Below are positions 6,550-26,476 of a stretch of DNA of 64,000 nucleotides, in pieces. Position 1 is the stretch's first letter. The number at the start of each line of letters is the position of its first letter. The position numbers were made by a program, and so were the translations under genes. Under the pieces are notes generated by a model that was not told the DNA's origin, searched no databases, and was given only the letters and a program-made list of their open reading frames with translations. The DNA is from an archaeon (lineage in GTDB: Archaea; Nanobdellota; Nanobdellia; SCGC-AAA011-G17; GW2011-AR17): the NCBI GenBank assembly GCA_018653605.1, contig JABHYY010000041.1:2874-66873 (forward strand), written 5' to 3'.

Positions 6550-8217
6550 TTACATTTGCTCTACTGTTTCTATGCCTAATAACCACAAACAAGAGCCCAT
6601 TATATTGATGTAGGAATCAACAAGAATATATCTTGCTTTTTGTAACTCATCATTCTCTGCTTTTATTACAGGACATAGTTCATAGAACCTATTAAATGAA
6701 GAAGCAAGATTGTAAGCATATACTGTAATTGCATGAGGGCTATAAGTCTTTGCTGCTTTCTCTAATACAGAAGATAATTCACTAAACTCCCTTACTAGCC
6801 CTTGCTCTGCAGGATGTATTAAAAGATTATAATTGATCTTAGAACTCTTTTTTAATTGTTTTTTTATCTTCTTAGCCCTTACTAAAGAGTATTGTAAATA
6901 AGGACCTGTCTCACCCTCAAAAGATATTGATTCTTTAGGGTTAAATGTAAAATCCTTATGTGCTGAATGTTTTAATAAGTAAAATTTTAATGCAGATAAA
7001 GAAATCTTTCTAGCTAATTCTTCTGTTTTTGTCTTGCTTAATTTGTTTCTTTTTTCTACTTCTTTCCTTGCAAGATTAAACAAATCATCCATAAGGTCGT
7101 CAGCATCTACAACAGTACCTTCTCTAGATTTCATTTTACCTTCTGGAAGAGATACCATACCATAACTTAAATGGTAACAGTCTTTTGCATATTTGTAGCC
7201 TAGTAGATCTAATATTTTGAAAAGGACTTTGAAGTGATAATTCTGTTCGTTCCCAACTACATAAACAGATTTGTTGAATTTGAATTCATTGTATTTTAAA
7301 TTGGCAAGATAAAGGTCTTGAGTAATATATACAGAAGTTCCATCTGCCCTTAGAAGAATCTTTTCTCCTAACTCTCCTCCAAGGTCAATCAGAGTTGCAC
7401 CTGTATCATCTTTCTTAAACAAACCTTTTTTTGTGTTCTCAAGTACTATCTCCTTTCCTTTAAAGTAAGTTTTACTCTCATAATATTCTTTATCAAATTT
7501 TATCCCAAAAGTTTTGTATGTTTCTTTGAACCCTTCAAAAGCCCACTTGTTCATCTTTTTCCAAAGCTTGATTGTTTCTTTGTCTCCTAGTTCCCATTTC
7601 CTTAACATCTCTCTTGCTTCATCTTCTAGCTTTGGTTCTTTTTTTGCTTTTTGTGCAAATAAAACATAATAATCCCCTATGAAATGGTCTGATTTCTTGT
7701 TTGGTTCTTTGCCTTTACCCCACTTTTGGTAGGCTAACATAGACTTACATATATGTATCCCTCTATCATTGTTTAGGTTTAATCTTTTAATTTTGGAACC
7801 TTGAGATTCTAAAATTCTTGAAACTGATTCTCCTAGTGCCATATTCCTTAAGTGGCCTAGATGTAAAGGTTTGTTTGTGTTTGGAGATGGGAATTCTACA
7901 AGAGTTGTTTTCTTATTGTTATTTTTGAAAGCGTATTTCTCTTTGGTTGTTTGCTTTAGAATTGCTTCACTTCTTTTTGTTTTGTTAACAAAGAAGTTTA
8001 AGTATGGACCTGTTGCTTTGATCTCTTTAATATTAGTATTGGGCTTGATTTTTTTTGCTAAATCTTGTGCTATTTGCTGGGGAGCCTTTTTGTAAGCTTT
8101 AGCTAATGTAAAACAAGGTAAGGCATAATCTCCCATTTCTGGATTAGATGGAACTTCTAATAAATCTTCTTTTATTTCTTTTTTTAATAATTTTAATATT
8201 TCTTTTCTGAAATCCAT
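6550..8217 (-). CDS. argS: Arginine--tRNA ligase
   Basis: Class I HIGH-type motif PSPNTNKPLHLGHLRN, KMSKS-like GKMKSREGT, C-terminal DALR-like anticodon-binding region. 555 aa. Confidence 0.85.
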   Translation of the reverse strand: MDFRKEILKLLKKEIKEDLLEVPSNPEMGDYALPCFTLAKAYKKAPQQIAQDLAKKIKPNTNIKEIKATGPYLNFFVNKTKRSEAILKQTTKEKYAFKNNNKKTTLVEFPSPNTNKPLHLGHLRNMALGESVSRILESQGSKIKRLNLNNDRGIHICKSMLAYQKWGKGKEPNKKSDHFIGDYYVLFAQKAKKEPKLEDEAREMLRKWELGDKETIKLWKKMNKWAFEGFKETYKTFGIKFDKEYYESKTYFKGKEIVLENTKKGLFKKDDTGATLIDLGGELGEKILLRADGTSVYITQDLYLANLKYNEFKFNKSVYVVGNEQNYHFKVLFKILDLLGYKYAKDCYHLSYGMVSLPEGKMKSREGTVVDADDLMDDLFNLARKEVEKRNKLSKTKTEELARKISLSALKFYLLKHSAHKDFTFNPKESISFEGETGPYLQYSLVRAKKIKKQLKKSSKINYNLLIHPAEQGLVREFSELSSVLEKAAKTYSPHAITVYAYNLASSFNRFYELCPVIKAENDELQKARYILVDSYINIMGSCLWLLGIETVEQM

Positions 8218-8235: not shown

Positions 8236-8718
8236 CTAATTATTAAGCTTTTTGTAGATCTTTATGAAAAGATCGTCTTCAATATTTAATCCTAATTGTA
8301 AAAGAGTGTTTGCTAACTCCTTTGCTCTATCTTTAAGCTCTGTTTTTTTGAACCTGAAGTTGTATGCTTTGTTTAATGTATAGTTGCATAGAAAGCCCTC
8401 ATTTAACTCAAAATTGAAAGAAGGTACTAGGTAAGGATTTAGTCTGAACTTTATTGGTTGGAAATATCTTTTGTTCTTTTCTATCCCATGGTTCTTTAGC
8501 TCGTGTTCTATTAGATCTTGTATAATTGTTCTATAGGGAGTTAGTTTAAAGTATTTTATTGGTTTTTCAAAAGGTATACTGTCTGTTTTCTCTAGTCTAG
8601 TGCACTTTCCAAGGTATTTTGTAGCTCTTTGTCGGGTTGCTTTTTTCCTTTTATACCATTTGTTCTCAATGGCATATAAATAGCTGTTTCCCTTGATAAT
8701 TTTTGTTCTTAGAAACAT
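8236..8718 (-). CDS. Hypothetical basic protein
   Basis: 160-aa ORF with a K/R-rich N-terminus. No recognised domain. Confidence 0.4.
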   Translation of the reverse strand: MFLRTKIIKGNSYLYAIENKWYKRKKATRQRATKYLGKCTRLEKTDSIPFEKPIKYFKLTPYRTIIQDLIEHELKNHGIEKNKRYFQPIKFRLNPYLVPSFNFELNEGFLCNYTLNKAYNFRFKKTELKDRAKELANTLLQLGLNIEDDLFIKIYKKLNN

Positions 8719-8759: not shown

Positions 8760-9206
8760 TTAGGGGTTTTTCCAGTCGTCGACAAATATTTCATGATAAC
8801 CATCAGGGAGTTTTGTTATTATCCTCGATATGCCTGCGTTGATTATCATCCTTTTACAGAAGACACAGGGTTTTGATAAAGCAACTGTTTTGTTCTTAGT
8901 GTTCTCTCCATACATGTAAAGTGTTGAACCTATCATCTGTTCTCTTGGTGCGAAAATGATTGCGTTTGCTTCTGCATGAACTGATTTGCACAGTTCATAC
9001 TTTTCACCTGAAGGAATGTTTAAGTTTTCTCTTTCACAGAAACCAATGTCTATGCAGTGAGGGATGCCTGAAGGGGTTGATGCCCAACCTGTGCTTATGA
9101 TCTTATTATCATTTACTATGATTGTTCCAAACTTTCTTCTGATGCAAGTAGATTTTTGTGCTACTTCTCTTGCAATGTTTAGATAAAATTCATCTTTGTT
9201 TCCCAT
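8760..9206 (-). CDS. dCMP deaminase (cytidine/deoxycytidylate deaminase family)
   Basis: Zinc-ligand motifs HAEANAI and PCVFCKRMI (H-A-E ... P-C-x-x-C). 148 aa, typical of ComEB/dCMP deaminase. Confidence 0.8.
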   Translation of the reverse strand: MGNKDEFYLNIAREVAQKSTCIRRKFGTIIVNDNKIISTGWASTPSGIPHCIDIGFCERENLNIPSGEKYELCKSVHAEANAIIFAPREQMIGSTLYMYGENTKNKTVALSKPCVFCKRMIINAGISRIITKLPDGYHEIFVDDWKNP

Positions 9207-9267: not shown

Positions 9268-11562
9268 ATGAAATTTCCTGTTGTTGATGCTTTTTTGATT
9301 GAAAGGGGTTCTGGAAAGATTGGTGTTTGTTGTAACACTCTTTCTCCTGACTCTGTTGAGGTTGAGAGTGATGATGTTGCTGTGATTGGTAGATTGGTTG
9401 TAAATAGAGATGGGGCTGAAAGAATGATTATTAACTCTCTTGTTCATCCTCAGATTGAATATTTAATTCTGTTTGGTGAAGAGAGTGCAAGTTTTTGTCC
9501 GAGCACTAATCTATTGTTAGCTATTATGGATGGTTATGAAGATGGTAGAATTAAAGGAGGGAGAGGATTGGCTGCACTCTATCCTAACATAAGTGTTGAA
9601 TTGTTAGAAAAATTTAAAGAAAATGTTATTGTTTTACCTATGTTCTTGAATAAAGATACAAAAGATGTTGTTGGAAAGTATTTGGATTGGTTAAAAGGAA
9701 AGGTTGGTGATGAAATTTATAGTAAATTGGTTGAAATTAATTCTAAGAAAAAAATTTATTTTGATTCTTTGAATGAAATGGTTGGATTGATCGAAAAAGT
9801 TCCTGCTAAAAAAATTAAGGAATTTGCTTTAGATCCTAAAGAGTTTCAACATTTGCAACCACCTATTATAGTTTTGGAAGGGGATGATGAAATTCAAGAT
9901 GTTAAATTTAAAGTTGTTAGAGTTGATGATGGGATCTTGTTGAATATATATATAGGTGAATGGGTTTATTCTTTGAAAGGGAATGATAGTTTTTTGATGG
10001 CTTATTCCTTAAATGAATTTTTGAATAAAAAAAAAGTTAAGTTAAATGTTGTTGATTGTTTGTTAATTGGTACTGAATTGTCTCGTATTGAAGTTGAGAT
10101 TAGAAGTGGTATCAAAAGTGAAGGCTTTGTTCAATCTAATCTATCTGAAGGAGAGGTAATTCCATTGCTTAAGGAAACTGATTTGAAAGCTGATAAAGAG
10201 TATTATTATAAGGTTGGTTTGAAAGATGATAAGGTTTATGTACAAAGTTTAGCAAATGATAATTCTAAAGAGGCTTATGAGTATCGATGTGATAAATTGT
10301 GGCCTTTGGTTCAAAAGATTGCTGAAGATTCTAGGTTTGAAGATTATGAACAAAAAACTTTGCATTGTATTGATGTTGGGATTGAAATGGCTAGGGCTTG
10401 TATTGCTTTGAATAATGGAATGAACTATTTTCAAGACTTTAGGAATTTGTTTAAAGTGAATAAAGATAAACTGCCTTTATTGATTGTTAAAGGGAATAAT
10501 TTCTTGGGTACACATCAAAAGATAATTACTGAATTGTATACAAAAGGGTTAACTATGACTCACCCAGATAATCATAAAGGTACAATGAGGTCTGGTTGTG
10601 TTCTTGCTGTGTATAGAAATTCTGATAAGGTGTTTGATGTAATGCCTGATGTGTATGCTTCTGATAATCAAAGTACTTCTGAAATGAGAAGGTTGTATAG
10701 GGAACAGTTGTTGTCTGCTGATTGTGCTGGAACTTATACTTATGGTGAAAGAACTAGAAAGTATTTTGGGAAGGATCAGTTAGTGGAAGCTGTTAGGGTT
10801 CTGAAGGAAAAGAAAGTGTTTGTTGTTCAAAGGTTTGATTTTAATGAGGATATGGGTGTAAAGGAAGTTGATGGGAATTTGAAGTTTACTAAAGACCCTT
10901 GTTTAACTCATGATATTTATTTTGTGTTGGGTGGGAAGTTACATAGTCTTCATATAGCAAGAGCACATAATATTGTTAATGCTTATCCTGAGAACCTTTT
11001 TGGGTTGCATGATTCTTATGATTCATTTGTAGCTAAGGAATTAGGTGTGGAGTTAGGTGATTTGTTTATGTTGTCTAATAGAGCAAATATTTTACTTTTG
11101 ACTGAAGAGCAGAAGACTCGAAAGTTTATTGCTGAGGTTTCTAAAGAAATGAAAGATCTGGAAAGTCCTGTTGGCCCTAACAAAGAGTTTGGAAAAGGTA
11201 TTAGTTATGGTGAGTTTGTTATGGAAGAGGTTTTTGAAGTTGAACATAGTGATTTGGAAAGGTTGGAGAATTATAATGGTGAAGATATTATTGCGAGAGC
11301 TATTAAGTATTTGAAATTGAAAGGTAATTGTCATAATAATCCTATATTAGGTACTTATGATCCTAGGAAAGGTTCTTGTGGAAGGTTATTATTTTTTCAA
11401 GCTAATGAAAGAGGAGGAAAGTTGTTTGCAAGTGCTGTATTCTTAGGAAAGGGAGAGAAGGATAAAGAATTATGTGATTATATTGCAACAAAGTACAAAA
11501 AAGAGTTGGGTGTTGAATTAGGTGATGTCTTTATGTTTCACATTGGAGTTGAAAATGATTAA
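9268..11562 (+). CDS. Fusion protein: N-terminal MtrA-like (H4MPT methyltransferase subunit A homology) domain + central region + thymidylate synthase (ThyA/dCMP-hydroxymethylase) fold domain + C-terminal extension with partial duplication
   Basis: Residues about 10-130 align with the MtrA N-domain as recalled (IGVCCNTLS..., [36 protein letters not shown]..., [24 protein letters not shown]). Residues about 390-650 align with E. coli ThyA: YGERTRKY vs [35 protein letters not shown] vs [50 protein letters not shown] vs [35 protein letters not shown] vs CDLEVGDFVWTG. The catalytic Cys is conserved (codon 10900-10902). The ELGVELGD(L/V)FM element recurs at the extreme C-terminus. Confidence 0.6.
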   Translation: [764 protein letters not shown]

Positions 11563-12181
11563 AGTTATTGGATTTGATTTAGATCAGACTTTGTATCCAA
11601 AATCTTATCATATTGATGAAGCTATTCAGCTTTATATTTATGAAAAAATTTCTGAATTTAAAAAATGTAGTTTAGAAGAGGCTAAGGAATTGTTTTGTAG
11701 TTATTATCCTGAATTAAGTGGTAGTAAGGCTTTGATGAAGTTAGGTGTGCCCGATGCAAGGAATATTATACAAGAGGCTTTGGAGAGAGCTGATATTGAC
11801 AAATATTTAGAACCTAATGAAGAATTGAAAAAATTGTTGCTGAAATTGAAAGATAAGTATATTGTTGATTTGATTACTGGTTCTAATAAAGGAATTGCTT
11901 TGAAAAAGTTAGCAAGGTTAGATATTCCTATTGAATTGTTTAATGTTGCGATCACTGGAGAGATTGCTAAATCAGATGGAACGGCTTATAGAGAATGGTT
12001 AAAAAATTATGGTTATGATGCTTCTGAGTTTCTTTATATTGGAGATAGAAAAAGTACTGATGTTGATGTTCCTAAAGAATTAGGAATAAATTCTTTTTTG
12101 GTTAATGTGACTAAATTTGATGAAAATCTTGAAATTAAGCAATTTAAATCTATACTTGATATAGGCGAAGTTCTACTATAG
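11555..12181 (+). CDS. HAD-superfamily hydrolase (phosphatase)
   Basis: Starts MIKVIGFDLDQTLY, which carries HAD motif I DxDxT. The ATG at 11555 overlaps the upstream stop (ATGATTAA). The track start at 11522 is probably too far 5-prime. Confidence 0.7.
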   Translation: MIKVIGFDLDQTLYPKSYHIDEAIQLYIYEKISEFKKCSLEEAKELFCSYYPELSGSKALMKLGVPDARNIIQEALERADIDKYLEPNEELKKLLLKLKDKYIVDLITGSNKGIALKKLARLDIPIELFNVAITGEIAKSDGTAYREWLKNYGYDASEFLYIGDRKSTDVDVPKELGINSFLVNVTKFDENLEIKQFKSILDIGEVLL

Positions 12182-12196
12182 AAATGCTTTTAATAT

Positions 12197-13114
12197 TTGA
12201 AGTCAGAATTGTTTTATATGGCTCCTAATATTACTTTTGAAAAAATTCTTCCAAAAGAAGACATTCTTAAGATGCTTAATAATATTGTTTTTAGAGGAGT
12301 TTATGATTCTGAAGGAAACCCTTTGAGGCCTTATGAAGGAGCTAAATTTTCAATGGTCAAGATCCTACCACCTGAAAGACCTACATCTTTTCCTAGAATT
12401 ATGCATAATTTTCAGCAACATCCTTTGTTTACTGCACAGCCTACTATTTATGCTGATCAAACAGAGATTATGGATAATGTTGATAATTTTTTGAAAACAA
12501 TTGATAAGAGGATTTTTAATATTGGTTTTGAAGGTGTACAATATTATTGGGAAGGTAGGGGAAGATTTCATATTATCCCTCCAATTATTGAAAAACATGT
12601 TTACCCTTTGAAAGATGGTTTTTTAGATTTTGAAAAAATGTCTAAGAGATTTGAAGGAGCATTTGTTAAAGATGCTAAAGGTGAGTTGCATCCTTTGTTT
12701 GAAAAAGTAATTAGAGATTTTTATATTGACCATGGAAGTAAGGTCAGTTACATGAATGTATTTCATCATAATGCAGAATTGATTAATTATGGCTTGAGGT
12801 TTAATGGAAATCATGAATTTTTTATTATTTGTGATGGTAGCCATAGAATAGATTTTGCTTTAGAACATTTAGATGAACCAACTAATGCTATTGTTGTTGA
12901 ATCTGATAATCTTCTCCCATACTATGCTTTTCCTATGCCCTTTAGACCTGTAACAAGATTGACTAGTAAAAAAGCTGAAAGAATGTATCCAAGATTAGAA
13001 AGAGATAAAGTGCATCTTCTTAATTCTTTTATTAAAAAGGTGTTACATTATGATTGGGTTAAGGGAGGATTACATGTTAGCTCATTACGAAATAAAAAAT
13101 TTCAACCTTGGTAA
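12197..13114 (+). CDS. ParB/sulfiredoxin-like (DGxHR motif) domain protein
   Basis: HEFFIICDGSHRIDFALEHLDEPTNAIVVE at about 12826-12900 resembles the ParB-like nuclease/Srx motif (LIDGHHRxxAAxxLGLxxIPAIVV). The N-terminal 200 aa are unassigned. Confidence 0.5.
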   Translation: MKSELFYMAPNITFEKILPKEDILKMLNNIVFRGVYDSEGNPLRPYEGAKFSMVKILPPERPTSFPRIMHNFQQHPLFTAQPTIYADQTEIMDNVDNFLKTIDKRIFNIGFEGVQYYWEGRGRFHIIPPIIEKHVYPLKDGFLDFEKMSKRFEGAFVKDAKGELHPLFEKVIRDFYIDHGSKVSYMNVFHHNAELINYGLRFNGNHEFFIICDGSHRIDFALEHLDEPTNAIVVESDNLLPYYAFPMPFRPVTRLTSKKAERMYPRLERDKVHLLNSFIKKVLHYDWVKGGLHVSSLRNKKFQPW

Positions 13115-13928
13115 GTTAAAAGAAAGTTTGGATAGGTGTTGGTTGAATAAGGGTAAGTTTCATTCTAGTTCTGTTGCAATAACTTCAAATGGTGAATATT
13201 ATTCTGGGTTAATGGAATCAAAAACTCATTTGTTGGATATAAGTTCTGAGCAAGGTGCTTTGGTTTGTGCTGTATCTTGTAAAGATCCTCATGTTAAGGA
13301 AATTGTAACTTTGGTTGCTGGAGAGTTTAGTTTGAATCCTATTATTGTTAAGGTGTTATGTGATCATGTTCGAAGAACTGGAACTTATATTAAATATAAA
13401 GTTTACAATTTGGAAGGTTCTGAGTTGTTGAATTTGGATGTGATGGATACTTATTATAGGCCTGAGATTAAGGTGTTAGAAAAAATTAGTTCCTGGGAAA
13501 AAAGAGAGTGTAAAAAGAAGTATGATGAGTCAAAAGATTTGAAAGAGCAATTAAAAGAGTGTGCTCTTTTGGGTATGGAGACTCATTTTTCTTCAAGTAC
13601 AAAAACATGTTATGGGGGTTCTGTTTTATCTGGTGGTTGGATTTATTTTGGTGGAGTGTACAGTAGTTTTGATCATAGGATGAATTTGCATTCTGAGATG
13701 AGTGCTTTTTTTTGTGCTTTGGCTGATGGTTGTAAGGATGTTGAAGCTATTGGATTGGTTAGTACTAAATTTGTTTCAGAAGTTCCACAAATGTGTGGGT
13801 GTTGTAGGCAGTTTTTTTCTGAAATAAATAAAGAAGTTATGTTTTATGGATTTAGTATGGATGGTACAAAAGTGTTTGAGAAAAATTTGAAAGAGTATTT
13901 GCCTTCTGCTTGGGATTCTAATATTTAG
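13050..13928 (+). CDS. Tandem cytidine-deaminase-fold protein (degenerate N-terminal copy + intact C-terminal CDA domain)
   Basis: C-terminal half: [11 protein letters not shown] ... [13 protein letters not shown] ... EYLPSAW aligns with B. subtilis Cdd (CAERTAL ... PCGACRQ ... ELLPGAF). N-terminal half keeps the fold spacing ([21 protein letters not shown]) but lacks the Zn ligands. Overlaps the upstream gene by about 65 nt, so the start is uncertain. Confidence 0.6.
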
Positions 13929-16765: not shown

Positions 16766-16813
16766 ATTTACTATATGTGTTGTAATGGTATAAATAGTTT
16801 ACTGTGGTTTTTA

Positions 16814-17245
16814 TTGACCCCCTCACACCTTGATTGCGTATGGAGATTTGGTTTTGGTTTTGGTTGTTGTGTTTGTATTAATTTTATTAGTTGTTTCTTA
16901 TGGAAATAAGTTAAATTAAATAGGTTTTAGAGAGGGAAAAGAGGGTAAAATAATATAATATATTGCTTCATTATTATTATTATTATTATTATTCTAATTC
17001 TTTAATATATTTATAATAGAAGCTCTAATTCTCAAGAATTTTATTTTCTCTTTTTTATTTTATTTATATGTTTTTCTATATTATATTATATTATATTATA
17101 TTAGTATTAATATAATATATATATTGTATTGTGTTATCATTATATAGTTCTATTGGAAACAAAGGGGTTGATTTAAAAAGGGATGAATTTGGTGATCCAT
17201 TATTTATGTTGAAATGATTTCCATAGGAAATGATGGAGGGGGTGT
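16814..17245. promoter_or_regulatory. oriC: Predicted chromosomal replication origin (oriC): three ORB/G-string-like elements flanking an AT-rich DUE, adjacent to orc1/cdc6
   Basis: Element 1 at about 16814-16834 is inverted: its reverse complement reads atcaaggtgtgaGGGGGTcaa. Element 2 at about 17153-17171 is ttggaaacaaaGGGGTtga. Element 3 at about 17224-17245 is ataggaaatgatggaGGGGGTg. Between them, 16930-17140 is very AT-rich with (tta)n and (attat)n microsatellites. Genes to the left are all on the minus strand and genes to the right on the plus strand. orc1/cdc6 starts 52 bp downstream. Confidence 0.6.
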
Positions 17246-17296
17246 TTATTTTTAATAATGAAAATGCTTAAATAGTTTATTTGTGTATTTGGAGAT

Positions 17297-18508
17297 ATGG
17301 TAAAAAAAGGAGTTGATAGTTTTTTTGATGATTTTCTGAAAAAGGAACCTTTGTTTAAAGATAAGTCTGTATTGCAAGCTAATTATAGTCCAGATAATAT
17401 TCCTCATAGGGAAGAACATATTGAAAAGGTTGCTGGAATATTAGCTCCTGCTCTTAGAGTTGAAAAGCCATCTAATATGTTTATTTATGGGAAAACAGGT
17501 TCTGGCAAGACTTTAGTTGTTAAGCATGTAACTGAAAGTATGGAAAAGATTGCTGAAAAAAATGGTCTTGCTATAAAAATATTTTATTTGAATTGTAAAA
17601 TGAAAAGAGTTGCTGATACTGAATATAGGTTGATTGCTGAAATGGCTAGAGCTTTAGGTGTTGAAATACCTGCAACTGGTTTGCCTACAGATGAAGTTTA
17701 TAGAATTTTTGTTGATAATTTAGAGAAGAGAAAGATTTTGTTAGTTTTAATATTAGATGAGATTGATCAGTTGGTTTCAAAAGCAGGAGATCAAGTTTTG
17801 TATTCTTTAACTAGGTTTAATTCTGAATTAAAAAATAGTTTGATTTCAATTGTTGGAATAAGTAATGATTTAATGTTTACAAATTATTTAGATCCGAGAG
17901 TTAAAAGTTCTTTATCTGAAGAAGAGTTGGTTTTTCCTCCTTATAATGCAATTCAATTGCAAGCAATATTGAAAGAAAGAGCTAAAGATGCTTTTAGGGA
18001 AGGAGTTATTGTTGATGGGGTTTTAGAAAAGTGTGCTGCATATGCTGCAAGGGAACATGGTGATGCAAGAAGAGCTTTAGAATTATTAAGGGTTGCTGGT
18101 GAATTAACTGAAAGAAAAAATAGTAAACAAATTAGTATAGATATATTAGATGAAGCTGAAGAGAAGGTTGAAAGAGATAGAGTTCATGATATTATTTTAA
18201 GTCAACCTAAACAATCACAAATTACTTTGTTAGCAATATTTGAAGCTGTAAAACAAATTGGTAACAAACCTTTATTTACAGGGGATGTATATGAGTTGTA
18301 TAAAGAATTATGTTTTAAAGTAAAGATTAAACCTCTTACACAAAGGCGTATTTCGGATCTTGTTGCTGAGCTTGATATGCTTGGAATAATTCATGCAAAA
18401 GTTATTAGTAAAGGAAGATATGGTCGAACAAGACAGTTTGGGTTGGGTGTACCTCCTTCAACAGTTCCGAAACTTGAAAAGTTGTTGAAAGAGGTTTTAA
18501 ATGTCTGA
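17297..18508 (+). CDS. cdc6: Orc1/Cdc6 replication initiator
   Basis: Walker A IYGKTGSGKTLVVKHV, Walker B LVLILDEIDQL, AAA+ lid and C-terminal winged-helix. 403 aa. A TATA-like ttaaatag lies about 25 bp upstream of the ATG, suggesting a leaderless transcript. Confidence 0.9.
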   Translation: MVKKGVDSFFDDFLKKEPLFKDKSVLQANYSPDNIPHREEHIEKVAGILAPALRVEKPSNMFIYGKTGSGKTLVVKHVTESMEKIAEKNGLAIKIFYLNCKMKRVADTEYRLIAEMARALGVEIPATGLPTDEVYRIFVDNLEKRKILLVLILDEIDQLVSKAGDQVLYSLTRFNSELKNSLISIVGISNDLMFTNYLDPRVKSSLSEEELVFPPYNAIQLQAILKERAKDAFREGVIVDGVLEKCAAYAAREHGDARRALELLRVAGELTERKNSKQISIDILDEAEEKVERDRVHDIILSQPKQSQITLLAIFEAVKQIGNKPLFTGDVYELYKELCFKVKIKPLTQRRISDLVAELDMLGIIHAKVISKGRYGRTRQFGLGVPPSTVPKLEKLLKEVLNV

Positions 18509-20083: not shown

Positions 20084-23000
20084 ATGAATTCTAAAAATAA
20101 AATAATAGTCGTAGCTATGTTAATTGTGTGTATGTCAATCTTAATGGTAAATTCTGTTGCCGCATTAAATTGTTGGGATAAAGATGGAACAACTATGGAT
20201 GAGTGTACAGATTATGATGTAAATGTTAATGGAGAAGCAGATGATTGTTGGTGGGATAGTTGGGGATCCTATTGTATGGAAAAAGGTTGTTGGGATCAAT
20301 CATCTCAAGAATCTTGTAATGCTGAAAACGATACTGGGTGTATTTGGAAATCAGAATCAGATATGGGATGGAATACTGGATGGTGTACTGATTTAGCTGA
20401 TTGTTGGAACCAATGGGATTATGATGGATGTACTGGTGTGAGTGGATGTGCTTGGAAAAATGCTTCTTGTCAAGGGCCTCCTGGTTGTGATGATGTTTTA
20501 AGTGAAACAAGTTGTTATGGTTCTTCTTTAGGATGTTGGTGGGATTATGGCTCTTATTGTTATTCTCCTGGATGTTGGGATTATGGAGGAAGTTCAGATT
20601 GTGGAAATGCTACTGGATGTAATTGGGTATCAGATGCTTATTGTACTGAATTAGGTGGAGGATCTTATTTTTTTAATAACCAAACATCTTGTGAAATAGC
20701 TGGATTTATTTGGGAAAGTTGGGGTAGTGGAGATGATGGATATTGTTATCAACCTAATTGTTATGATTATAGTGATACTTTAACTTGTAATAATGCATCA
20801 AGTGGAGATTGTGCTTGGAGTGTTTATGATTATTGTTATGAAAAGTCTTGTTGGAATTATTGGAATCAAACAGCTTGTACAGATAATGGTGATAGTGTAG
20901 TAGGTGGTTGTGATTGGACTAATTCTGGTTATTGTTCAGAACCAAGTTGTCCAAGTTTTGATGGGAATGCAACTGGTTGTAATGCAAGTGTAGGGTGTAT
21001 TTGGGATGCTGATAATAGTCAATGTCAATATGAAGGGTGTTGGAATTATTATGATACAGGATCTTGTGCAAATGTTACTGGTTGTCAATGGAAAGAAACT
21101 TCTTGTATGGGAAGTTCTGGTTGTGAAAATTTAGAGACATATGATGCTTGTTATGATTCTTCTTTATCTTGTTGGTGGGATTATGGAGATTATTGTGAAG
21201 AAACAGATTGTTGGGATTTTGATGATAATCAAAGTTATTGTGAAACAGATAGTTTGACATATAATTTAGATTGTACTTGGGATTCTTATTGGGGAGAATG
21301 TTGGGAAAATTGGTGTGGTGAGTATTCAACTGAAAACTCATGTAATGATAGTGTTTCTGGTGATTGTTATTGGGATGCAAATGCAAATTATTGTTATGAA
21401 GAAAATTGTTGGGGTTATTCTGATGAAACAAATTGTGAAAATAGAGGATGTGCTTGGGATGGAGATTATGGGTATTGTGAACAAGCATCTGCTGCAAGTT
21501 GTTATGATTTAACTCAAAGCGAATGTACTAATGGAACTTATAGTACAAGTTGTAAGTGGGATTATGGTTGGGGTGGAACTGATGGATGGTGTTCTGATAG
21601 AGGGTGTTGGGATCTTTATGATTCAACAAGTTGTTCAAATGCTAGTCTTGATGTAAGTTGTGAATGGGTAACTGATTCCGGTGGTTGGTGTGAAGAAGAA
21701 GGTACAAATTGTTGGGATTATTATACAGAAGAAAATTGTGGTGCAAATAATTGTACTTGGGATGCTGCTTATAATAGTTGTTATGAAAAAGGTTGTTGGG
21801 ACCATTGGACAAATTCAAGTTGTGCAGCTGATTCAAGTTGTCAATGGTCAACTGGTTCTGCTGACTGGGGATGGTGTGAAAAAGTTTCATGTTGGTCATG
21901 GGATAATACAAATGAATCTGGTTGTGAAAACAATAGCTATAGTTTAAGTTGTGAATGGGACAATAGTAGTAGTGGATGGTGTATGGGTCCATGGCAAAAT
22001 AACTGTTGGGAATTAGATGCTTGGCAAGGTGGAAATGCTTCTGCTTGTAATGCTTTAAACACAACTGGAGAAAATTGTACTTGGCAAGCAATGAGTGGAT
22101 GGTGTTATGAATCAAGCAAAACTTTTAGCGATTTTACATCAGAAGGTGAATGTTTGAGTAGTGGTTGGGGTAGTTGGAATGGAAGTGATTGTGTTGTTTC
22201 AGAACAAACTGATTTTCAAAACCCTGGTTGTTGGATATTTGATGGTAAACCAACTGAGTGTAATGGTATACAAGGATGTACTTATAATACAACAAGTACT
22301 GAATGTAGTGGCTTAGACATATTAGGAATACAGTGTGAAAATATTAGTAGTGTAATTGCAAATAATGTAACTAATACTACATTGTGTGAAGTTTTACCTA
22401 TGTTGTCAACTTGTTGTAAGTATCAAGGTGGACAGTGTGCAACAAGTTATGATACAGCTTGTTGGGATCAAATGGCTGATCCTCCAGAAGGTGCAACATT
22501 TTGTTCTGATTTTAATGTAATAGATAGTAGGCCTTTGTGTGATCAGATTTCAGGTGAACCTTGGTATATGCCTTGTACATGGAATAATGTAAGTACTGAA
22601 TGTGGATTTAAAGGTGATCTTACAGATGATTTAGATAATATTAAAACTAAGAAAGAGTGTGCGTTTGTAGGTGGAACTTGGAAAACTGAAAGTGTTTGTG
22701 ATGATGCATCTAATTGTCCTTATGCTGAAACTTGGTGTGAAATAGAAACAGGTTCATCTTTGTATGGATGTGATATGTCTTGTTGGGCTTGTAATACATC
22801 TACTTCTTGTCGTTCATCTACTAAAGGTTATTGTATGTGGGTGCAAGATACAAGTTTAACTCAAGGAGGATACTGTGATATTCCAGAAACTATAGAAACT
22901 TTTGGAGATTGTGATACATCTTGTCCTTCATGTGAATACTATAGTGGTGGTACTTTTACACCAGAAGAAGCTTGTTTAGCAAGTAAGAATCAATGTAAGT

Positions 23001-26000
23001 GGGATAATTCAACTGAAAGTTGTATTGAGAAAAAAAGTAAAGGTTGTGGAGATGATTGTTTCTATTGTTATAATCTAGATGATTGTAATATGAATGGTGG
23101 TGGAGCTCAAGGAACTTGTAAGTGGGATAATAGTGATGGAATGTGTACTCCTGCTAATTTTGATAGTGAGATTTGTTTTGATGGAAGTGACAACGACAAT
23201 GATGAATTAGTTGATTGTGAAGATCCAGAATGTACTTTTGATCCTTTCTGTGGAGGAGGAGAAATGGGAGAATGTTGGTTATACCAAGATAGTACTAGTT
23301 GTGGAATTCAAAGTGATTGTGAGTGGATACAAGATCCTTGGACAAGTGATTATAGATGTGGTATGAAAGGTGAATCTTGTTGGATGTATCAAACAAATGT
23401 TACTGGTTGTGGTTCAGATGTAAATTGTAAGTGGTATGAAAATACTTTTTGTGAAATAAATCACTCTTTATCTGAAACTTGTTTTCAAAAAACAACTGAG
23501 AGTGGTTGTGAGGCAGTAAGTTCTTGTAAGTGGCAAGCTGATCCATACAGTCCGCAAGATGGATGGTGTGACTTTGCAATGTTTGAATGTCATTGGAACT
23601 CTACATTAGGTGGAAGCAGAACTAATTGTGAATCTAATTCATTGTGTAGTTGGGTAACTGATCCTTGGTCCGGTAGTGGATGGTGTGATCCTAAATGCTT
23701 TGCAAAAGATAGTGATGGCGATGAGTTGTATACAACACAAAGTTCTTGTGAAGGTGCAGTAACAGGTGGACTTTGTGAATGGTCTTCTGGATGGTGTGAA
23801 CCAAATGTTACTTCTACTGGTTCTGTAGATGGAAGAGATTGTCCTTCATACGATGGTAACATGACTTCTTGTGAAGAGCAGCCTGGTTGTGCTTGGTTTG
23901 AACAACACATGTCTGGAAGTGATCATGTTGATAGTGAAGAAGGTGGTTTCTTTGGATCACAATGTGATGTTAAACATGAGTTAGCTGTAGATTGTTGGAT
24001 GTTGAGAAATCAAACAGAATGTAATTTTACCAATAGAACAAATGGATATAATAATACAGGTGATCAAGATGCATGTAGGTGGATTACTGAAGGTAGTTGG
24101 TCTTGGTGTGAACAAATAGGTTGGCATTGTGGTCCCACTTATTCACCATTTAATATGACTACTTATCAACCAGAAACTGATACAGCTGCATGTGCTGCAG
24201 ATCCTTATTGTATGGTTGATACAGATGAATATATGGGTAATCAAGAAGTTTGTGTCTCAAATTGTTTTAATGTTAGTTTGGGTCAGTCTGATTGTGAAAG
24301 TGTAAATACGCAATTAGGAAGTCAGATGTGTGTGTGGTATGGTTTTGGTGGAGGTGGTGGAGAATCTACTGGTGGATGGTGTGATCCAAAAGGTTCAGAA
24401 GCAATATTTGAAAGTATGGAAAGTGGTGTACCTTACATGTTAGGAAGTGATGTATGTGGTGCTGGTTCCGATGATGCTGCATTGAATGATTGGATAGATC
24501 TTTGTGGTGCTGGTATAAAAGAAACCAATGATGACTATATGATGGGTATGGGTTTGTCGTCTATGACTTATGCCGGAGTTTGTAATGGTGAATCACTTTG
24601 GGATGGAAGTACTGGAAGTGGAAGAAAAGCTACTAAAGGTTATTGGTATTTAGATACTGATGGAACTACAGACAATAATTGTTATTCAGATGATGGTGCA
24701 GAGAATGGATTTGAGTTTAAGTTGGTTGCTGAATGGACTTGGTCTGATGAAGGCTTAAAAGAAATGTTAAGTGCAAAGAGATGTTCTAATAGTAGTTGGG
24801 TTGCAGCAAATATTAGATTGGATACACATGCTAAAAAAATGTGTCAAGAAATGCAAGGAATGATTGTTACTGTTAAGAAAGCTGACTTGAATAATTTCCC
24901 TAGTTTGTTTGATATAAGTCATCCAATGAGAATATATTCTGTATCTGCAGGTGAAAATAATACTGCAACTGCTCCAGCCGATAGTGTGGGTCCAAATTAT
25001 TATAAATCTGGAACTGTAGATTTTAAGTTAGAACATTGTGATTCTATTGGTAAAGTTGACAAGGATGGCGATGGTTTTTATTCCTATGAAGATCCAGATT
25101 GTAAGCACATGTATATGGATGAAGAATTTGGTATGAAAGGAACTGAAGATTGTACAAACTTGATTGATGACGATAGAGATGGTGCAATAGATTGTACTGA
25201 TATACAATGTAAAGATGAAGTTGTTTGTGGTTCAGCATTTGCAGTTAATGCAACTGATAAAGAAGCACCTGAAGTAATTGAAATTGATGCAGATGAAAAT
25301 TCTAATACTGCACAAATTGTTGTTAAGACAGAAGAGAGAGCGAATGTTACTTTGAAGTTCTACAATAACGACAGTACTGGTTCAAGAATTAATTCAACAA
25401 TTAGAGCTGAAGGAATGCAGAAAGGAAACTTTACTGATGAAAGAGAAAGGTTTGTGTTTAATAGTGTAATTAGTCTAAATAACTTTACAACTAATACAGA
25501 TATGTTGAATTATACATTAGATAATGCAACCACCTATTATTATAGGGTTGAAGTTTGTGATGTGTCTGGTAATTGTGGAGAGTCTGGATTAAGAAACTTT
25601 ACAACAAAAGCTGTAACAGAAAGATCTACTATTAAAGTTACTGATAGTGATTCAGGACAGACTTGGCAAATAGATAATGGAAGTGGAACATATGCTAATC
25701 CAGGTAGTGCTTGTTCTTCATCAAGTACTTCAACATTAGGTGAGCCTATTGATCCGGATCAAATTAGTGAAGTTGATTTGAGAATGCAGTTGACTAATGC
25801 AGATAGTTTAGCAATGGAAGTAAGACTTGAAGGTGTTGAAACTGGTTCAGATGTTATTGCTCCTTTAGATTTAGATATTGGAACTTTAACTGGTTCAGAG
25901 TCTGATGTAACTGAAGATTACTTTGCAATTGATGAAAGTGATTGGGGAGGTAATGATGGTATCTATAGTGTGGGTCATCCTGACACATTAGTGTTGAGTT

Positions 26001-26476
26001 ATCCTGGTGATGATACTGAGTTGTGGGATTGTGCAGCTTTATCTGGAAGCACTCCAATAAATTGTACTAACATTACTGGTTATGCAATAAGAAGTTATAG
26101 TTCAGGTACTGACATTACTGAATGGACAATTTCAAATCCACCAATACATATTTGGTCTTACATTATAGATCAAACACCTGTTGCAGCTGCGGCTGAAGAA
26201 AGTTCTAGTTCTTCTGGTGGTGGCGGTAGTGGTGGCGCTGGTTCAACTACAAGTGATGAAGAAGAGGAAGAAGAAAGCACAGATCCTGTAAGTGAAGTTA
26301 TTGATGGTGTTGTAGAAGATGTTGGAGATGTTGCTGGTGAAGCAGGACAAAGGGTAGCTGAGTTTGCAGAAGATGTAGGTGAAAGTTTTACTGACTTTGG
26401 TTGGTTATGGTTTGCACTTGCTTCAGTGATTGCAGTTGGAGTTGTGTTGTTTATAGTCTTTAGAAAAAAGGCTTAA
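20084..26476 (+). CDS. Giant (2130 aa) secreted Cys/Trp-rich repeat surface protein with TSP3-like Ca-binding motifs, FN3-like module and C-terminal acidic stretch + TM anchor
   Basis: N-terminal signal peptide MNSKNKIIVVAMLIVCMSILMVNSVAA. Dozens of C..W...GCW(D/N) repeats. DGSDNDNDELVDCEDPECTFDPFC and DDDRDGAIDCTDIQCKDEVVC motifs. FN3-like segment ...YYYRVEVCDVSGNCGESGLRNFTT. The C-terminus is a poly-Glu stretch, then QRVAEF, then a TM helix (GWLWFALASVIAVGVVLFIVF), then RKKA. Confidence 0.8.
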   Translation: MNSKNKIIVVAMLIVCMSILMVNSVAALNCWDKDGTTMDECTDYDVNVNGEADDCWWDSWGSYCMEKGCWDQSSQESCNAENDTGCIWKSESDMGWNTGWCTDLADCWNQWDYDGCTGVSGCAWKNASCQGPPGCDDVLSETSCYGSSLGCWWDYGSYCYSPGCWDYGGSSDCGNATGCNWVSDAYCTELGGGSYFFNNQTSCEIAGFIWESWGSGDDGYCYQPNCYDYSDTLTCNNASSGDCAWSVYDYCYEKSCWNYWNQTACTDNGDSVVGGCDWTNSGYCSEPSCPSFDGNATGCNASVGCIWDADNSQCQYEGCWNYYDTGSCANVTGCQWKETSCMGSSGCENLETYDACYDSSLSCWWDYGDYCEETDCWDFDDNQSYCETDSLTYNLDCTWDSYWGECWENWCGEYSTENSCNDSVSGDCYWDANANYCYEENCWGYSDETNCENRGCAWDGDYGYCEQASAASCYDLTQSECTNGTYSTSCKWDYGWGGTDGWCSDRGCWDLYDSTSCSNASLDVSCEWVTDSGGWCEEEGTNCWDYYTEENCGANNCTWDAAYNSCYEKGCWDHWTNSSCAADSSCQWSTGSADWGWCEKVSCWSWDNTNESGCENNSYSLSCEWDNSSSGWCMGPWQNNCWELDAWQGGNASACNALNTTGENCTWQAMSGWCYESSKTFSDFTSEGECLSSGWGSWNGSDCVVSEQTDFQNPGCWIFDGKPTECNGIQGCTYNTTSTECSGLDILGIQCENISSVIANNVTNTTLCEVLPMLSTCCKYQGGQCATSYDTACWDQMADPPEGATFCSDFNVIDSRPLCDQISGEPWYMPCTWNNVSTECGFKGDLTDDLDNIKTKKECAFVGGTWKTESVCDDASNCPYAETWCEIETGSSLYGCDMSCWACNTSTSCRSSTKGYCMWVQDTSLTQGGYCDIPETIETFGDCDTSCPSCEYYSGGTFTPEEACLASKNQCKWDNSTESCIEKKSKGCGDDCFYCYNLDDCNMNGGGAQGTCKWDNSDGMCTPANFDSEICFDGSDNDNDELVDCEDPECTFDPFCGGGEMGECWLYQDSTSCGIQSDCEWIQDPWTSDYRCGMKGESCWMYQTNVTGCGSDVNCKWYENTFCEINHSLSETCFQKTTESGCEAVSSCKWQADPYSPQDGWCDFAMFECHWNSTLGGSRTNCESNSLCSWVTDPWSGSGWCDPKCFAKDSDGDELYTTQSSCEGAVTGGLCEWSSGWCEPNVTSTGSVDGRDCPSYDGNMTSCEEQPGCAWFEQHMSGSDHVDSEEGGFFGSQCDVKHELAVDCWMLRNQTECNFTNRTNGYNNTGDQDACRWITEGSWSWCEQIGWHCGPTYSPFNMTTYQPETDTAACAADPYCMVDTDEYMGNQEVCVSNCFNVSLGQSDCESVNTQLGSQMCVWYGFGGGGGESTGGWCDPKGSEAIFESMESGVPYMLGSDVCGAGSDDAALNDWIDLCGAGIKETNDDYMMGMGLSSMTYAGVCNGESLWDGSTGSGRKATKGYWYLDTDGTTDNNCYSDDGAENGFEFKLVAEWTWSDEGLKEMLSAKRCSNSSWVAANIRLDTHAKKMCQEMQGMIVTVKKADLNNFPSLFDISHPMRIYSVSAGENNTATAPADSVGPNYYKSGTVDFKLEHCDSIGKVDKDGDGFYSYEDPDCKHMYMDEEFGMKGTEDCTNLIDDDRDGAIDCTDIQCKDEVVCGSAFAVNATDKEAPEVIEIDADENSNTAQIVVKTEERANVTLKFYNNDSTGSRINSTIRAEGMQKGNFTDERERFVFNSVISLNNFTTNTDMLNYTLDNATTYYYRVEVCDVSGNCGESGLRNFTTKAVTERSTIKVTDSDSGQTWQIDNGSGTYANPGSACSSSSTSTLGEPIDPDQISEVDLRMQLTNADSLAMEVRLEGVETGSDVIAPLDLDIGTLTGSESDVTEDYFAIDESDWGGNDGIYSVGHPDTLVLSYPGDDTELWDCAALSGSTPINCTNITGYAIRSYSSGTDITEWTISNPPIHIWSYIIDQTPVAAAAEESSSSSGGGGSGGAGSTTSDEEEEEESTDPVSEVIDGVVEDVGDVAGEAGQRVAEFAEDVGESFTDFGWLWFALASVIAVGVVLFIVFRKKA

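Follow-up and report, generated by a model that had tools for sequence, protein, structure and literature searches.

The 764-residue product of gene C, an archaeal open reading frame whose limits are those given in the initial annotation, reads as a five-domain relative of thymidylate synthase ThyA with a fused, dead partner copy and an altered active site. In what we consider the best explanation, to which we assign a probability of about one half, it is a single-chain, pseudo-dimeric enzyme of the ThyA superfamily with one active site, forming dTMP within a four-gene pyrimidine module. We found no description of the protein or of the operon in the literature. The features of the window (the whole 64,000-nucleotide stretch of DNA that was analyzed) on which this reading draws are collected in Table 1.

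Table 1. Position, strand, and basis of assignment of gene C, its domains and repeat, and the neighboring genes
Feature	Position (nt)	Strand	Basis or remarks
dCMP deaminase (ComEB-like), divergently transcribed	8760..9206	-	Pfam dCMP_cyt_deam_1, E 3e-15
Gene C: five domains (MtrA-like, DUF4346', DUF4346, ThyA, ThyA')	9268..11562	+	ORF
MtrA-like Rossmann-type domain	9295..9702	+	aa ~10-145
Helical linker	9703..9852	+	aa 146-195; AF2 secondary structure; no family match
First DUF4346-like domain (DUF4346'), degenerate	9853..10167	+	aa ~196-300; hhalign 86%
Second DUF4346 domain	10180..10452	+	aa ~305-395; PF14251 E 1.6e-4; hhalign 97.3%, E 1.7e-11
Catalytic ThyA-fold domain	10465..11103	+	aa ~400-612; key residues Tyr492, Cys545, Arg565, Asn568, Asn576, Asn607, Leu609
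Motif copy 1, 13 aa	11035..11073	+	aligns to E. coli ThyA QCDLEVGDFVWTG
Second ThyA domain (ThyA'), degenerate	11104..11559	+	aa 613-764; hhalign
Motif copy 2, 13 aa	11500..11538	+	homologous position of pseudo-domain
Gene D, HAD-family hydrolase	11555..12181	+	Pfam HAD_2; ATG overlaps gene C end
Gene A, 298-aa conserved protein	12218..13114	+	DGSHR motif; ParB/Srx-like core; remaining fold unmatched
Gene B, tandem cytidine-deaminase-fold protein	13050..13928	+	NCBIfam and PDB cytidine deaminase

Domain architecture of the gene C protein

The AF2 model of the protein has a pLDDT of 85.4 and a pTM of 0.74, and the five domains are recognized by profile–profile comparison with hhalign probabilities of 98, 86, 97.3, 98.7, and 94%, in order from the N terminus. 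There are 73 full-length homologues, at 38-87% identity. The N-terminal domain has the MtrA fold and exceeds the Pfam gathering score for MtrA (PF04208); the original proposal of an MtrA-like domain fused to a ThyA-fold enzyme is supported. The ThyA alpha/beta fold is present, but PF00303 finds no match in the gene C protein (and matches 1 of 36 family members), the TIGR03283 score is 54.8 bits where 174.55 would be required, and the protein thus stays below the Pfam and NCBIfam thresholds. A PDB sequence search, with both the protein and the family profile, returned MtrA as its sole match and placed ThyA at an E of about 1; fold and profile–profile methods were therefore required.

Two DUF4346 domains and the operon described below had gone unmentioned in the initial annotation. 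The first of these domains aligns with the DUF4346 profile of a family of proteins of about 475 aa (see below) at an E of 4.9e-6, and the two domains have a beta-beta-beta-alpha-alpha pattern in common in the AF2 model. PF14251 matches 13 of 36 family members, whereas on the gene C protein itself it reaches 22.8 bits, below its gathering score of 29.6. The ThyA' domain, over its whole length, is a homologue of the second half of the ThyA core, matching both aa 494-602 of the same protein (hhalign 83%, E 8e-6) and the ThyA profile of the 475-aa family (E 1.4e-7).

Conserved and altered active-site residues

Within the catalytic domain, Cys545 (nt 10900-10902; the ThyA nucleophile, retained as first reported), Arg565 at the Arg166 position, and Tyr492, the equivalent of Tyr94, are invariant in 36 sequences. 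The uracil specificity residue is kept as well, with an invariant Asn576 at the Asn177 position. The Lys437/Arg441 region is invariant across the family, as is Asp543, two residues before Cys545; the residue three before Cys545 is Lys or His. About 100 further columns are invariant between archaea and bacteria at 38-87% identity.

Other positions differ from canonical ThyA. An ungapped R-x-x-[D/N]-x7-N alignment places Asn568 (nt 10969-10971), an invariant Asn in the subfamily, at the Asp169 position; Ser167 is replaced by Ala, His147 by Leu, His207 by Asn (Asn607), and Tyr209, which contacts the 3'-OH in ThyA, by Leu (Leu609). In addition, the Arg-Arg pair (Arg126'-Arg127') is lost from the catalytic domain itself. 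Asp169 is needed in canonical ThyA to open the imidazolidine ring of methylene-tetrahydrofolate, according to the title of PDB entry 1BJG. Altered specificity had been suspected from a PCH-to-PCL replacement and from changes in the D169/N177 region. The PCL sequence is indeed present, but is common to archaeal-type enzymes, and within the D169/N177 region the claim holds for Asp169 and fails for Asn177. Since the Asp169 position is changed, the substrate, as suggested, or the cofactor may differ from that of canonical ThyA.

A degenerate second ThyA domain and its repeat

Canonical ThyA is normally an obligate homodimer, in which the Arg126'-Arg127' loop comes from the partner subunit. ThyA' contains no equivalents of the Cys, Arg166, or Asn177; its sole strongly conserved motif is the invariant His689-Asn690-Asn691-Pro692 (HNNP; nt 11332-11343), located at the position of the Arg126'-Arg127' loop. 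A 394-aa relative (P0445) exhibits a cleaner form of complementary decay, with the Cys in domain 1 only and SRRILVTPCNP in domain 2 only. We infer a single composite site because the catalytic residues are invariant in domain 4 only while HNNP lies in domain 5, and because of the complementary decay in P0445 and the disappearance of Arg-Arg from the catalytic domain. ThyA' would then replace the partner subunit of the homodimer, its His-Asn-Asn-Pro loop entering the active site where the partner Arg-Arg loop otherwise would.

The two copies of the 13-residue motif agree at 11/13 residues and 31/39 nucleotides, much more than chance would give in a protein of 764 aa, and the nucleotide-level similarity originally noticed is thus real. 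Its attribution to a recent partial internal duplication does not survive: ThyA' is a whole domain present in 73/73 full-length homologues and also in more distant long forms, and, of the roughly 9 motif codons that can vary synonymously, 5 are different in the two copies. Across the motif region, 11-12/20 aligned columns are identical in gene C and its 87% relative, compared with a median of 4/20 in 34 other members. The repeat is the most conspicuous part of an ancient duplication, and its near-identity alone is lineage-specific. In the 87% relative (P0002), Glu has changed to Gly in parallel in the two copies, at one and the same position of the motif. Gene conversion was rejected as the cause, as the third base remains particular to each copy; the parallel change hints at a contact across a pseudo-dyad.

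Loss of the corrinoid ligand from the MtrA-like domain

In MtrA, the corrinoid subunit of methyl-H4MPT:CoM methyltransferase (PDB 5LAA, 5L8X), cobalt is ligated by His84, to which its partner Glu54 is hydrogen-bonded (PMC4915002). The gene C protein lacks this dyad, having an invariant Phe76 (nt 9493-9495) at the His84 position and Asn46 (nt 9403-9405) at that of Glu54, and a deletion removes the His ligand from the 475-aa family too. Unlike MtrA, the protein has no membrane anchor and no accompanying mtr operon, and its hosts are not methanogens; no mtr genes (the mtrA-H complex or operon, or mtrB-H) occur among the neighbors examined. The MtrA-like domain is thus predicted to be unable to ligate a corrinoid through His, and the corrinoid/H4MPT-binding role first ascribed to it is not supported.

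A conserved four-gene operon

Gene C belongs to an operon of four genes (A, B, C, and D) that is complete in 43/55 loci from Patescibacteria and DPANN archaea. The gene order is A-B-C-D in 42/55, and in the window all four genes are arranged C-D-A-B; at the other 12/55 loci A and B, or D, are missing, mostly at contig ends. Gene B, found in 47/55 loci, matches cytidine deaminases at E 6e-7 (NCBIfam) and 6e-6 (PDB); its N-terminal half is degenerate, with HSE...MCGCCRQ kept in the C-terminal half. The best NCBIfam matches of gene D, present in 51/55 loci, are CTE7 and the pyrimidine 5'-nucleotidase TIGR01993 (E 1.8e-14, below the cut-off). The core of gene A is of the ParB/Srx type, which sulfiredoxin and the serine kinases also have. 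Gene B is fused to the N terminus of C in two cases (P0014, P0021), and C is fused to D in two (P0003, P0023); the B-C and C-D fusions are independent of each other.

The dCMP deaminase next to gene C (Table 1), which recurs in the same arrangement in the locus of the 87% relative (L060), would supply dUMP. Among the 55 loci, a dUTPase is nearby in 20, SHMT in 15, and FolD in 4. In Patescibacteria the module adjoins nusG-rplK, the same neighborhood in which a 475-aa enzyme is found with dCMP deaminase, dUTPase, and thymidylate kinase (one comparable locus examined). None of the 55 loci contains ThyA, ThyX, or FolA within 10 kb, a regex screen of the window and 54 loci for the ThyX RHR...S motif gave false positives only, and the viral contigs scanned held no member of the gene C family.

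Relation to known enzymes

The closest comparison is with MtrA-ThyA-DUF4346 proteins of about 475 aa from DPANN, Thermoproteota, and Patescibacteria (P0074 and P0078 among them), of which >500 are in databases, automatically annotated as "DUF4346 domain-containing protein" or, in many cases by NCBI or JGI, as "thymidylate synthase". The initial view that an MtrA-ThyA fusion was undescribed is therefore right only for the literature, where we found no paper on such a fusion; searches on DUF4346 and dCMP hydroxylase likewise yielded nothing relevant, and the Asgard thymidylate paper is silent on both these lineages and fusions. The 475-aa proteins have three domain families in common with gene C (hhalign MtrA-like 98%, ThyA 98.7%, DUF4346 97%), read PCL in place of PCH, are likewise without the MtrA His ligand, and come from organisms of the same kinds, and at least one of them lies in a context of dCMP deaminase, dUTPase, and thymidylate kinase. 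They differ in domain order (MtrA, ThyA, DUF4346, versus MtrA, two DUF4346 domains, ThyA, and ThyA' in gene C, which has both an extra degenerate ThyA and an extra DUF4346 domain) and in the active site (RSHD versus RAHN, SAHIY versus RANIL, and the loss of Arg-Arg in gene C). The gene C family has operon partners of its own (A, B, and D). The same accessory domains, MtrA-like and DUF4346, accompany both the 475-aa archaeal/CPR thymidylate synthases and DHPS-like pterin enzymes.

Compared with canonical ThyA (E. coli ThyA; PF00303, TIGR03284), gene C encodes a short form without the folate-binding insertions and with about 400 extra N-terminal residues, in which the homodimer appears to have given way to an intramolecular pseudo-partner. 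Its best structural match is to the phage flavin-dependent 5-hydroxy-dCMP synthases (HY126 AfhB, PDB 9IQU/9IQC; RB69 gp48), which are also short ThyA folds with Asp169-to-Asn, a published signature of the flavin-dependent ThyA branch (PMC13326640). The phage enzymes, however, have Asn177 changed to Asp (cytosine), and their Leu143 position is acidic, where gene C keeps Asn177 and has Lys or His three residues before the Cys; they are single-domain, O2-using proteins of DNA-hypermodification clusters, whereas gene C is cellular, multi-domain, and found near SHMT and dUTPase. Bifunctional DHFR-TS of protozoa and plants likewise joins a thymidylate-synthase-family domain to an N-terminal accessory module in organisms that need cofactor recycling, but the N-terminal module of gene C bears no relation to DHFR, nor can a reductase activity be predicted for it.

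Proposed function and alternatives

The product of the enzyme is most likely dTMP, with dUMP as the presumed substrate. The active ThyA domain (aa ~400-612) would provide the nucleophile Cys545 together with Arg565, the uracil-reading Asn576, and Tyr492; Cys545 would attack C6 of dUMP, and the C5 enolate would then accept a one-carbon unit, yielding dTMP. The MtrA-like and DUF4346 domains would most likely hold or process a one-carbon or redox cofactor, and the A-B-C-D module would both feed and drain the pyrimidine deoxynucleotide pool of these reduced-genome DPANN archaea and Patescibacteria. We favor dTMP because of the conservation of A-B-C-D, the gene fusions, and the dUTPase, SHMT, FolD, and dCMP deaminase neighbors, and because the nusG-rplK neighborhood is shared with the 475-aa enzyme, ThyA, ThyX, and FolA are absent within 10 kb, and viral members are absent. 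Several observations speak against this assignment: the invariant Asn at Asp169, a position at which Asp is retained by the nearest relatives of the long form and by the 475-aa enzymes; the replacement of the Arg-Arg phosphate loop by HNN, of Tyr209 by Leu, and of Ser167 by Ala; the flavin-dependent dCMP hydroxylase as best structural match; and the subthreshold Pfam and NCBIfam scores. Gene B (resembling a nucleoside-level cytidine deaminase) and gene D (nucleotidase-like) seem to fit a nucleotide-level synthase only loosely.

The same architecture could instead house a flavin or other lactam-type cofactor in the folate site and act in another way on C5 of a uracil nucleotide, by either hydroxylation as in AfhB and RB69 gp48 or a ThyX-like, flavin-mediated reductive methylation yielding tetrahydrofolate rather than dihydrofolate. 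That Asp169-to-Asn, diagnostic of flavin-dependent ThyA homologues (PMC13326640), is invariant in the gene C subfamily and missing from its nearest relatives argues for this possibility, as do the lack of FolA near the operon and the chemical expectation that Asn would suit the isoalloxazine N3-H/C=O better than the pterin 2-amino/N3-H. We nonetheless consider it unlikely: Asn177 is kept, and the ring is therefore uracil, not cytosine; closeness to 9iqc may reflect nothing more than both being short ThyA forms; phage enzymes use O2, whereas many gene C hosts are DPANN or CPR organisms of groundwater or sediment; SHMT and FolD neighbors point to methylene-tetrahydrofolate; the family is missing from viral contigs; and no flavin-binding motif was identified in the protein. 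Loss of the partner Arg-Arg phosphate clamp to His-Asn-Asn and of the 3'-OH contacts (His207 to Asn, Tyr209 to Leu) would also suit a non-canonical pyrimidine product such as 5-hydroxymethyl-dUMP, or a nucleoside or different sugar as substrate, with a putative phosphotransferase (A), a deaminase (B), and a phosphatase (D) handling substrate or product at the nucleoside level. Consistent with this are the invariant Asp543 near a position that is acidic in hydroxymethylases, and the resemblance of gene B to free-nucleoside cytidine deaminases, of gene D to pyrimidine 5'-nucleotidases, and of the gene A core to sulfiredoxin and the serine kinases. Such a product or substrate seems quite unlikely to us, in that Arg565 and the invariant Lys437/Arg441 region could still bind phosphate, His207-to-Asn is common to long forms that otherwise look canonical, and the operon sits among housekeeping genes of minimal genomes, adjoining dUTPase and SHMT, which favors an essential function (dTMP supply) over an exotic base.

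The idea that the ThyA core receives methyl or methylene from an MtrA domain that binds a corrinoid or H4MPT, with the C-terminal repeat as a recent partial duplication, starts from real observations: the MtrA fold, the presence of DUF4346 in MtrA-annotated and DHPS-like pterin proteins, and a near-identity of the motif confined to the gene C lineage. It is very improbable in view of the replaced His84 and Glu54, the deletion of the His in the 475-aa family, and the lack of mtrB-H nearby; DPANN and CPR organisms, moreover, are not known to synthesize corrinoids. The recent duplication is largely refuted by the divergence at synonymous sites and by the duplicated unit being a whole half-domain found in all homologues and distant long forms. 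A thymidylate synthase descendant that has lost catalysis and serves as a scaffold or regulator would account for the lost canonical residues and the subthreshold family scores, yet it is scarcely credible given that Cys545, Arg565, Asn576, Tyr492, and about 100 further columns do not vary between archaea and bacteria and that operon partners are fused to gene C. Returning to dTMP formation, a more far-reaching version, which we regard as a long shot, is that thymidylate synthesis in the family follows a third kind of mechanism: the folate site would be re-tooled (Asp169-to-Asn) for a flavin-type or non-pterin cofactor, the MtrA-like and DUF4346 domains would supply or recycle the one-carbon unit, neither dihydrofolate nor FolA would be needed, gene A would be an associated kinase, a new enzyme of ParB/Srx fold, and some Patescibacteria and DPANN archaea would obtain their dTMP by this route.

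Significance

Thymidylate synthesis is essential, and its only known enzyme classes are two, ThyA and ThyX. The gene C family is a conserved, uncharacterized ThyA derivative found only in ultra-small symbionts, in which the Asp required by canonical ThyA for methylene-tetrahydrofolate activation is replaced and, if the packing is as we propose, a single polypeptide with one active site has taken the place of an obligate homodimer. The family also offers a functional handle on DUF4346 and on a non-corrinoid MtrA-like domain. Should gene C encode the thymidylate synthase of its hosts, it would show how much drift the ThyA active site allows and would reveal their route to a DNA precursor; should it not, it would point to a new pyrimidine-modifying pathway with three unstudied partners, including one whose fold is essentially new.

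Domain architecture of gene C

Gene C, the protein under study, is encoded by an ATG-to-stop ORF of 764 aa that, as the initial annotation had it, joins MtrA-like and ThyA-fold regions in one polypeptide (see the table). In Pfam, PF04208 (MtrA) covers aa 31-138 at 28 bits, exceeding its gathering score of 25, and PterinBD-DUF4346 gives a sub-threshold match on aa 311-390; in NCBIfam, TIGR03283 (archaeal thymidylate synthase) matches aa 406-607 (E 8e-15) at 54.8 bits, below its cut-off of 174.55 bits. A plain sequence search of gene C against the PDB found MtrA alone, and no ThyA. We resolved the domain units by profile–profile comparison (hhalign), using as a bridge an abundant 475-aa MtrA-ThyA-DUF4346 family, annotated in databases as thymidylate synthase, which itself aligns with E. 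coli ThyA (98.2%, E 3e-14). Five homologous units emerge, and gene C therefore comprises one MtrA-like, two DUF4346, and two ThyA domains. The second, degenerate ThyA domain (the pseudo-domain, ThyA′) aligns over 117 columns of the ThyA profile, and directly to aa 494-602 of gene C itself (83%, E 8e-6). In content, gene C corresponds to two 475-aa chains, as in a dimer, with one MtrA domain missing and the rest reordered within a single polypeptide; the AF2 model built from 36 homologues is confident (pLDDT 85.4, pTM 0.74).

Features of the gene C region (nucleotide positions in the window unless marked aa)
Feature	Position	Strand	Description
Arginyl-tRNA synthetase (ArgRS)	6550-8217	-	just upstream of the module
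160-aa ORF	8236-8718	-	no family match; between ArgRS and dCMP deaminase
Gene C	9268-11562	+	gene under study
MtrA-like unit	aa 1-145		hhalign 98%, E 1.6e-13
Degenerate DUF4346 unit	aa 195-300		hhalign 86%, E 4.9e-6
DUF4346 unit	aa 300-400		hhalign 97.3%, E 1.7e-11
ThyA unit (catalytic domain)	aa 400-612		hhalign 98.7%, E 1.7e-16
Degenerate ThyA domain	aa 613-764		hhalign 94%, E 1.4e-7
13-aa motif, copy 1	11035-11073		
13-aa motif, copy 2	11500-11538		
Gene D	11555-12181		HAD hydrolase; ATG overlapped by gene C end
Gene A	12218-13114		ParB/Srx-like protein
Gene B	13050-13928		tandem cytidine deaminase
AT-rich intergenic region	16766-17296		upstream of orc1/cdc6
Inverted repeat	16894-16915 / 17209-17230		82% complementary; within the AT-rich region
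orc1/cdc6	17297-18508		
2130-aa ORF	20084-26476	+	

Complementary decay of the two ThyA domains

Active-site residues were mapped through a chain of ungapped alignments from E. coli ThyA to the 475-aa family to the gene C family, read together with the invariant columns. Tyr94 (Tyr492 in gene C), Cys146 (Cys545), Arg166 (Arg565), and Asn177 (Asn576) are kept; His147 is replaced by Leu546, as it is by Leu in the 475-aa enzymes, and Ser167 (Ala566), Asp169 (Asn568, invariant in the gene C family), His207 (Asn607), and Tyr209 (Leu609) are changed. The Asp169 and Asn177 positions had both been described as altered, which is correct for the former but not for the latter. The catalytic domain lacks the Arg126-Arg127 pair, and the pseudo-domain loop aligned to that pair is the invariant His689-Asn690-Asn691-Pro692, the pseudo-domain's sole strongly conserved motif. 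Complementary residue loss of this kind is the pattern predicted by one composite active site. A purer case is P0445, a 394-aa protein consisting of ThyA and ThyA′ only, in which domain 1 keeps the Cys and has lost the Arg-Arg pair, and domain 2 has lost the Cys and keeps SRRILVTPCNP; an Asp at its Asn177 position suggests a cytosine substrate.

Distant forms of 786-906 aa (P0335, P0336, P0339, P0343, P0347, and P0351, whose sequences look high-GC) share the domain order of gene C (MtrA, DUF4346, ThyA, degenerate ThyA), which places the origin of the single-chain architecture before the gene C subfamily and its distribution beyond it. Because these forms retain R-x-H-D, and with it Asp169, the Asp169-to-Asn and Tyr209-to-Leu changes and the HNN loop are derived features of that subfamily.

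The 13-residue repeat

The 13-aa motif does recur near the C-terminus with nucleotide-level similarity (11/13 residues and 31/39 nt identical), but the proposal of a recent partial internal duplication does not stand. The motif is the homologous strand of both ThyA domains, aligning to E. coli QCDLEVGDFVWTG; the domain duplication is old, because the pseudo-domain occurs in every homologue and in the distant long forms, and the 5 synonymous codon differences between the copies in the window likewise mean that the event is not recent. The odd feature is instead the near-identity of the copies in gene C and in P0002, its 87% identical relative: over 20 aligned columns, copy-to-copy identity is 11 and 12, respectively, as against 1 to 7 (median 4) in 34 other members. 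Nucleotide identity is 34/39 between the paralogous copies of P0002, and 32/39 and 35/39 between the orthologous copies of the two genes. P0002 carries Glu-to-Gly at the same position of both copies (GAG to GGG in one, GAA to GGA in the other). We rejected conversion as the source, since each copy retains its own third base; the independent A-to-G changes are parallel substitutions, a single, weak hint that these positions may be coupled across the pseudo-two-fold axis.

The N-terminal module

The MtrA-like domain had been likened to the corrinoid-binding subunit, a reading that is not supported. In MtrA the residue that binds cobalamin is His84, and a hydrogen bond links it to Glu54 (PMC4915002). 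Since these positions are the invariant Phe76 and Asn46 in gene C (phmmer alignment), and the cobalt-ligand His is likewise deleted in the 475-aa family, the alignments exclude His-on corrinoid binding; no mtr genes occur among the neighbours of gene C. DUF4346 is also the C-terminus of TIGR00284 ("dihydropteroate synthase-like protein", NCBIfam) and of a 390-aa MtrA-annotated family, and the MtrA-like/DUF4346 pair thus accompanies pterin enzymes. Many invariant polar residues (Cys21, Asn23, Asp48, Glu51, Arg52, Asn56, His60, Glu72, and Asn81) argue for a ligand-binding module, whose role may be one-carbon or redox cofactor handling.

A compact family in a conserved operon

Among 5.8 billion proteins searched, we found 73 full-length homologues (~800 aa, 38-87% identity, query coverage 99-100%), almost all unnamed or "hypothetical", from Woesearchaeota, Diapherotrites or Iainarchaeia, Nanoarchaeota, and many Patescibacteria. 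After clustering at 50%, the family is down to ~8 full-length representatives in a set of 1.84 billion proteins, and is therefore compact. Scanning a single genome for each GTDB species gave 54 loci, mostly in Paceibacteria-type CPR bacteria with ~10 in DPANN archaea, and a scan of IMG/VR viral contigs gave zero members. The window itself is archaeal by its genes (Orc1/Cdc6, PolD small subunit, LonB). Its AT-rich intergenic region may be a replication origin; GC content at 16-18 kb is 27.5%.

Genes A, B, C, and D form an operon that is conserved in both Patescibacteria and DPANN archaea, in the order A-B-C-D at 42 of 55 loci and C-D-A-B in the window alone; the other 12 lack A and B, or D, with gaps mostly at contig ends. 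Fusions of B with C (P0014, P0021) and of C with D (P0003, P0023) indicate that the genes are functionally tied. In gene B the C-terminal cytidine-deaminase half is intact (HSE...MCGCCRQ) and the N-terminal half degenerate; for gene D, the NCBIfam models that match best are those of the CTE7 HAD subfamily and of pyrimidine 5'-nucleotidase, each with a score below cut-off. Neighbours include dUTPase (20 loci), SHMT (15), FolD (4), ArgRS (24), and nusG and rplK (~30), and a dCMP deaminase divergently adjoins gene C in the window and at L060, the locus of P0002. Canonical ThyA, ThyX, and FolA are absent within 10 kb of gene C at the 54 loci and from the whole 64-kb window. One Patescibacteria locus of the 475-aa enzyme reads nusG, rplK, dCMP deaminase, dUTPase, enzyme, thymidylate kinase. 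The A-B-C-D module of CPR genomes likewise adjoins nusG-rplK, from which dUTPase often separates it. This one comparable locus suggests that the module functionally replaces the 475-aa enzyme.

Several further features of these neighbourhoods may be recorded. The window ArgRS is only 24-34% identical to those at 23 CPR loci, and the gene is absent from all other archaeal loci; its shared position is either coincidence or the remnant of a transferred block. L060 has a 160-aa gene at the same position as the window ORF. A ~188-aa family with a stretch resembling a NUDIX box lies directly downstream of gene D, mostly at ~13.1-13.8 kb, in most of 14 CPR loci (L015, L023-L026, L028, L032, L033, L035, L047, L049, L052, L054, L056). 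P0380 (733 aa) joins MtrA-ThyA-DUF4346 to a dCMP deaminase, a further independent thymidylate synthase/deaminase fusion.

Chemistry and novelty

We consider it well supported (probability about 0.85) that gene C is a single-chain, pseudo-dimeric ThyA-superfamily enzyme with one active site, using Cys545 on a uracil-type ring within a conserved DPANN/CPR pyrimidine module. To our knowledge, neither an intramolecular ThyA pseudo-dimer nor a cellular Asp169-to-Asn ThyA has been described. The MtrA-ThyA fusion per se, which had been taken as undescribed, is already in databases, auto-annotated; our literature search found no publication on this fusion, DUF4346, the 800-aa family, or the operon.

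The reaction is less constrained. The title of PDB entry 1BJG states that a canonical ThyA carrying the equivalent Asp-to-Asn mutation "does not promote opening of the cofactor imidazolidine ring", and a 2026 study presents Asp169-to-Asn as the diagnostic signature of flavin-binding, dCMP-hydroxylating phage ThyA homologues (PMC13326640). Gene C shares that signature (Asn568), and its best structural matches, 9IQU and 9IQC, are crystal structures of such a phage enzyme, so that flavin-dependent dCMP hydroxylation might be transferred to it directly. However, the phage enzymes act on dCMP, whereas the Asn177 retained in gene C points to uracil; they are viral and the gene C family is cellular; and the structural closeness may arise from both being short ThyA forms. 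Non-folate or non-methylating chemistry is a genuine possibility in a site so remodelled (Ser167 to Ala, Asp169 to Asn, Tyr209 to Leu, and the HNN loop), and there is room for a different substrate form, partners B and D being nucleoside-level in flavour. For the pseudo-dimeric enzyme we put dTMP as the product at roughly even odds; in its favour are the genomic context, the fact that minimal genomes need such a function, and a chromosomal position equivalent to that of a probable true synthase.
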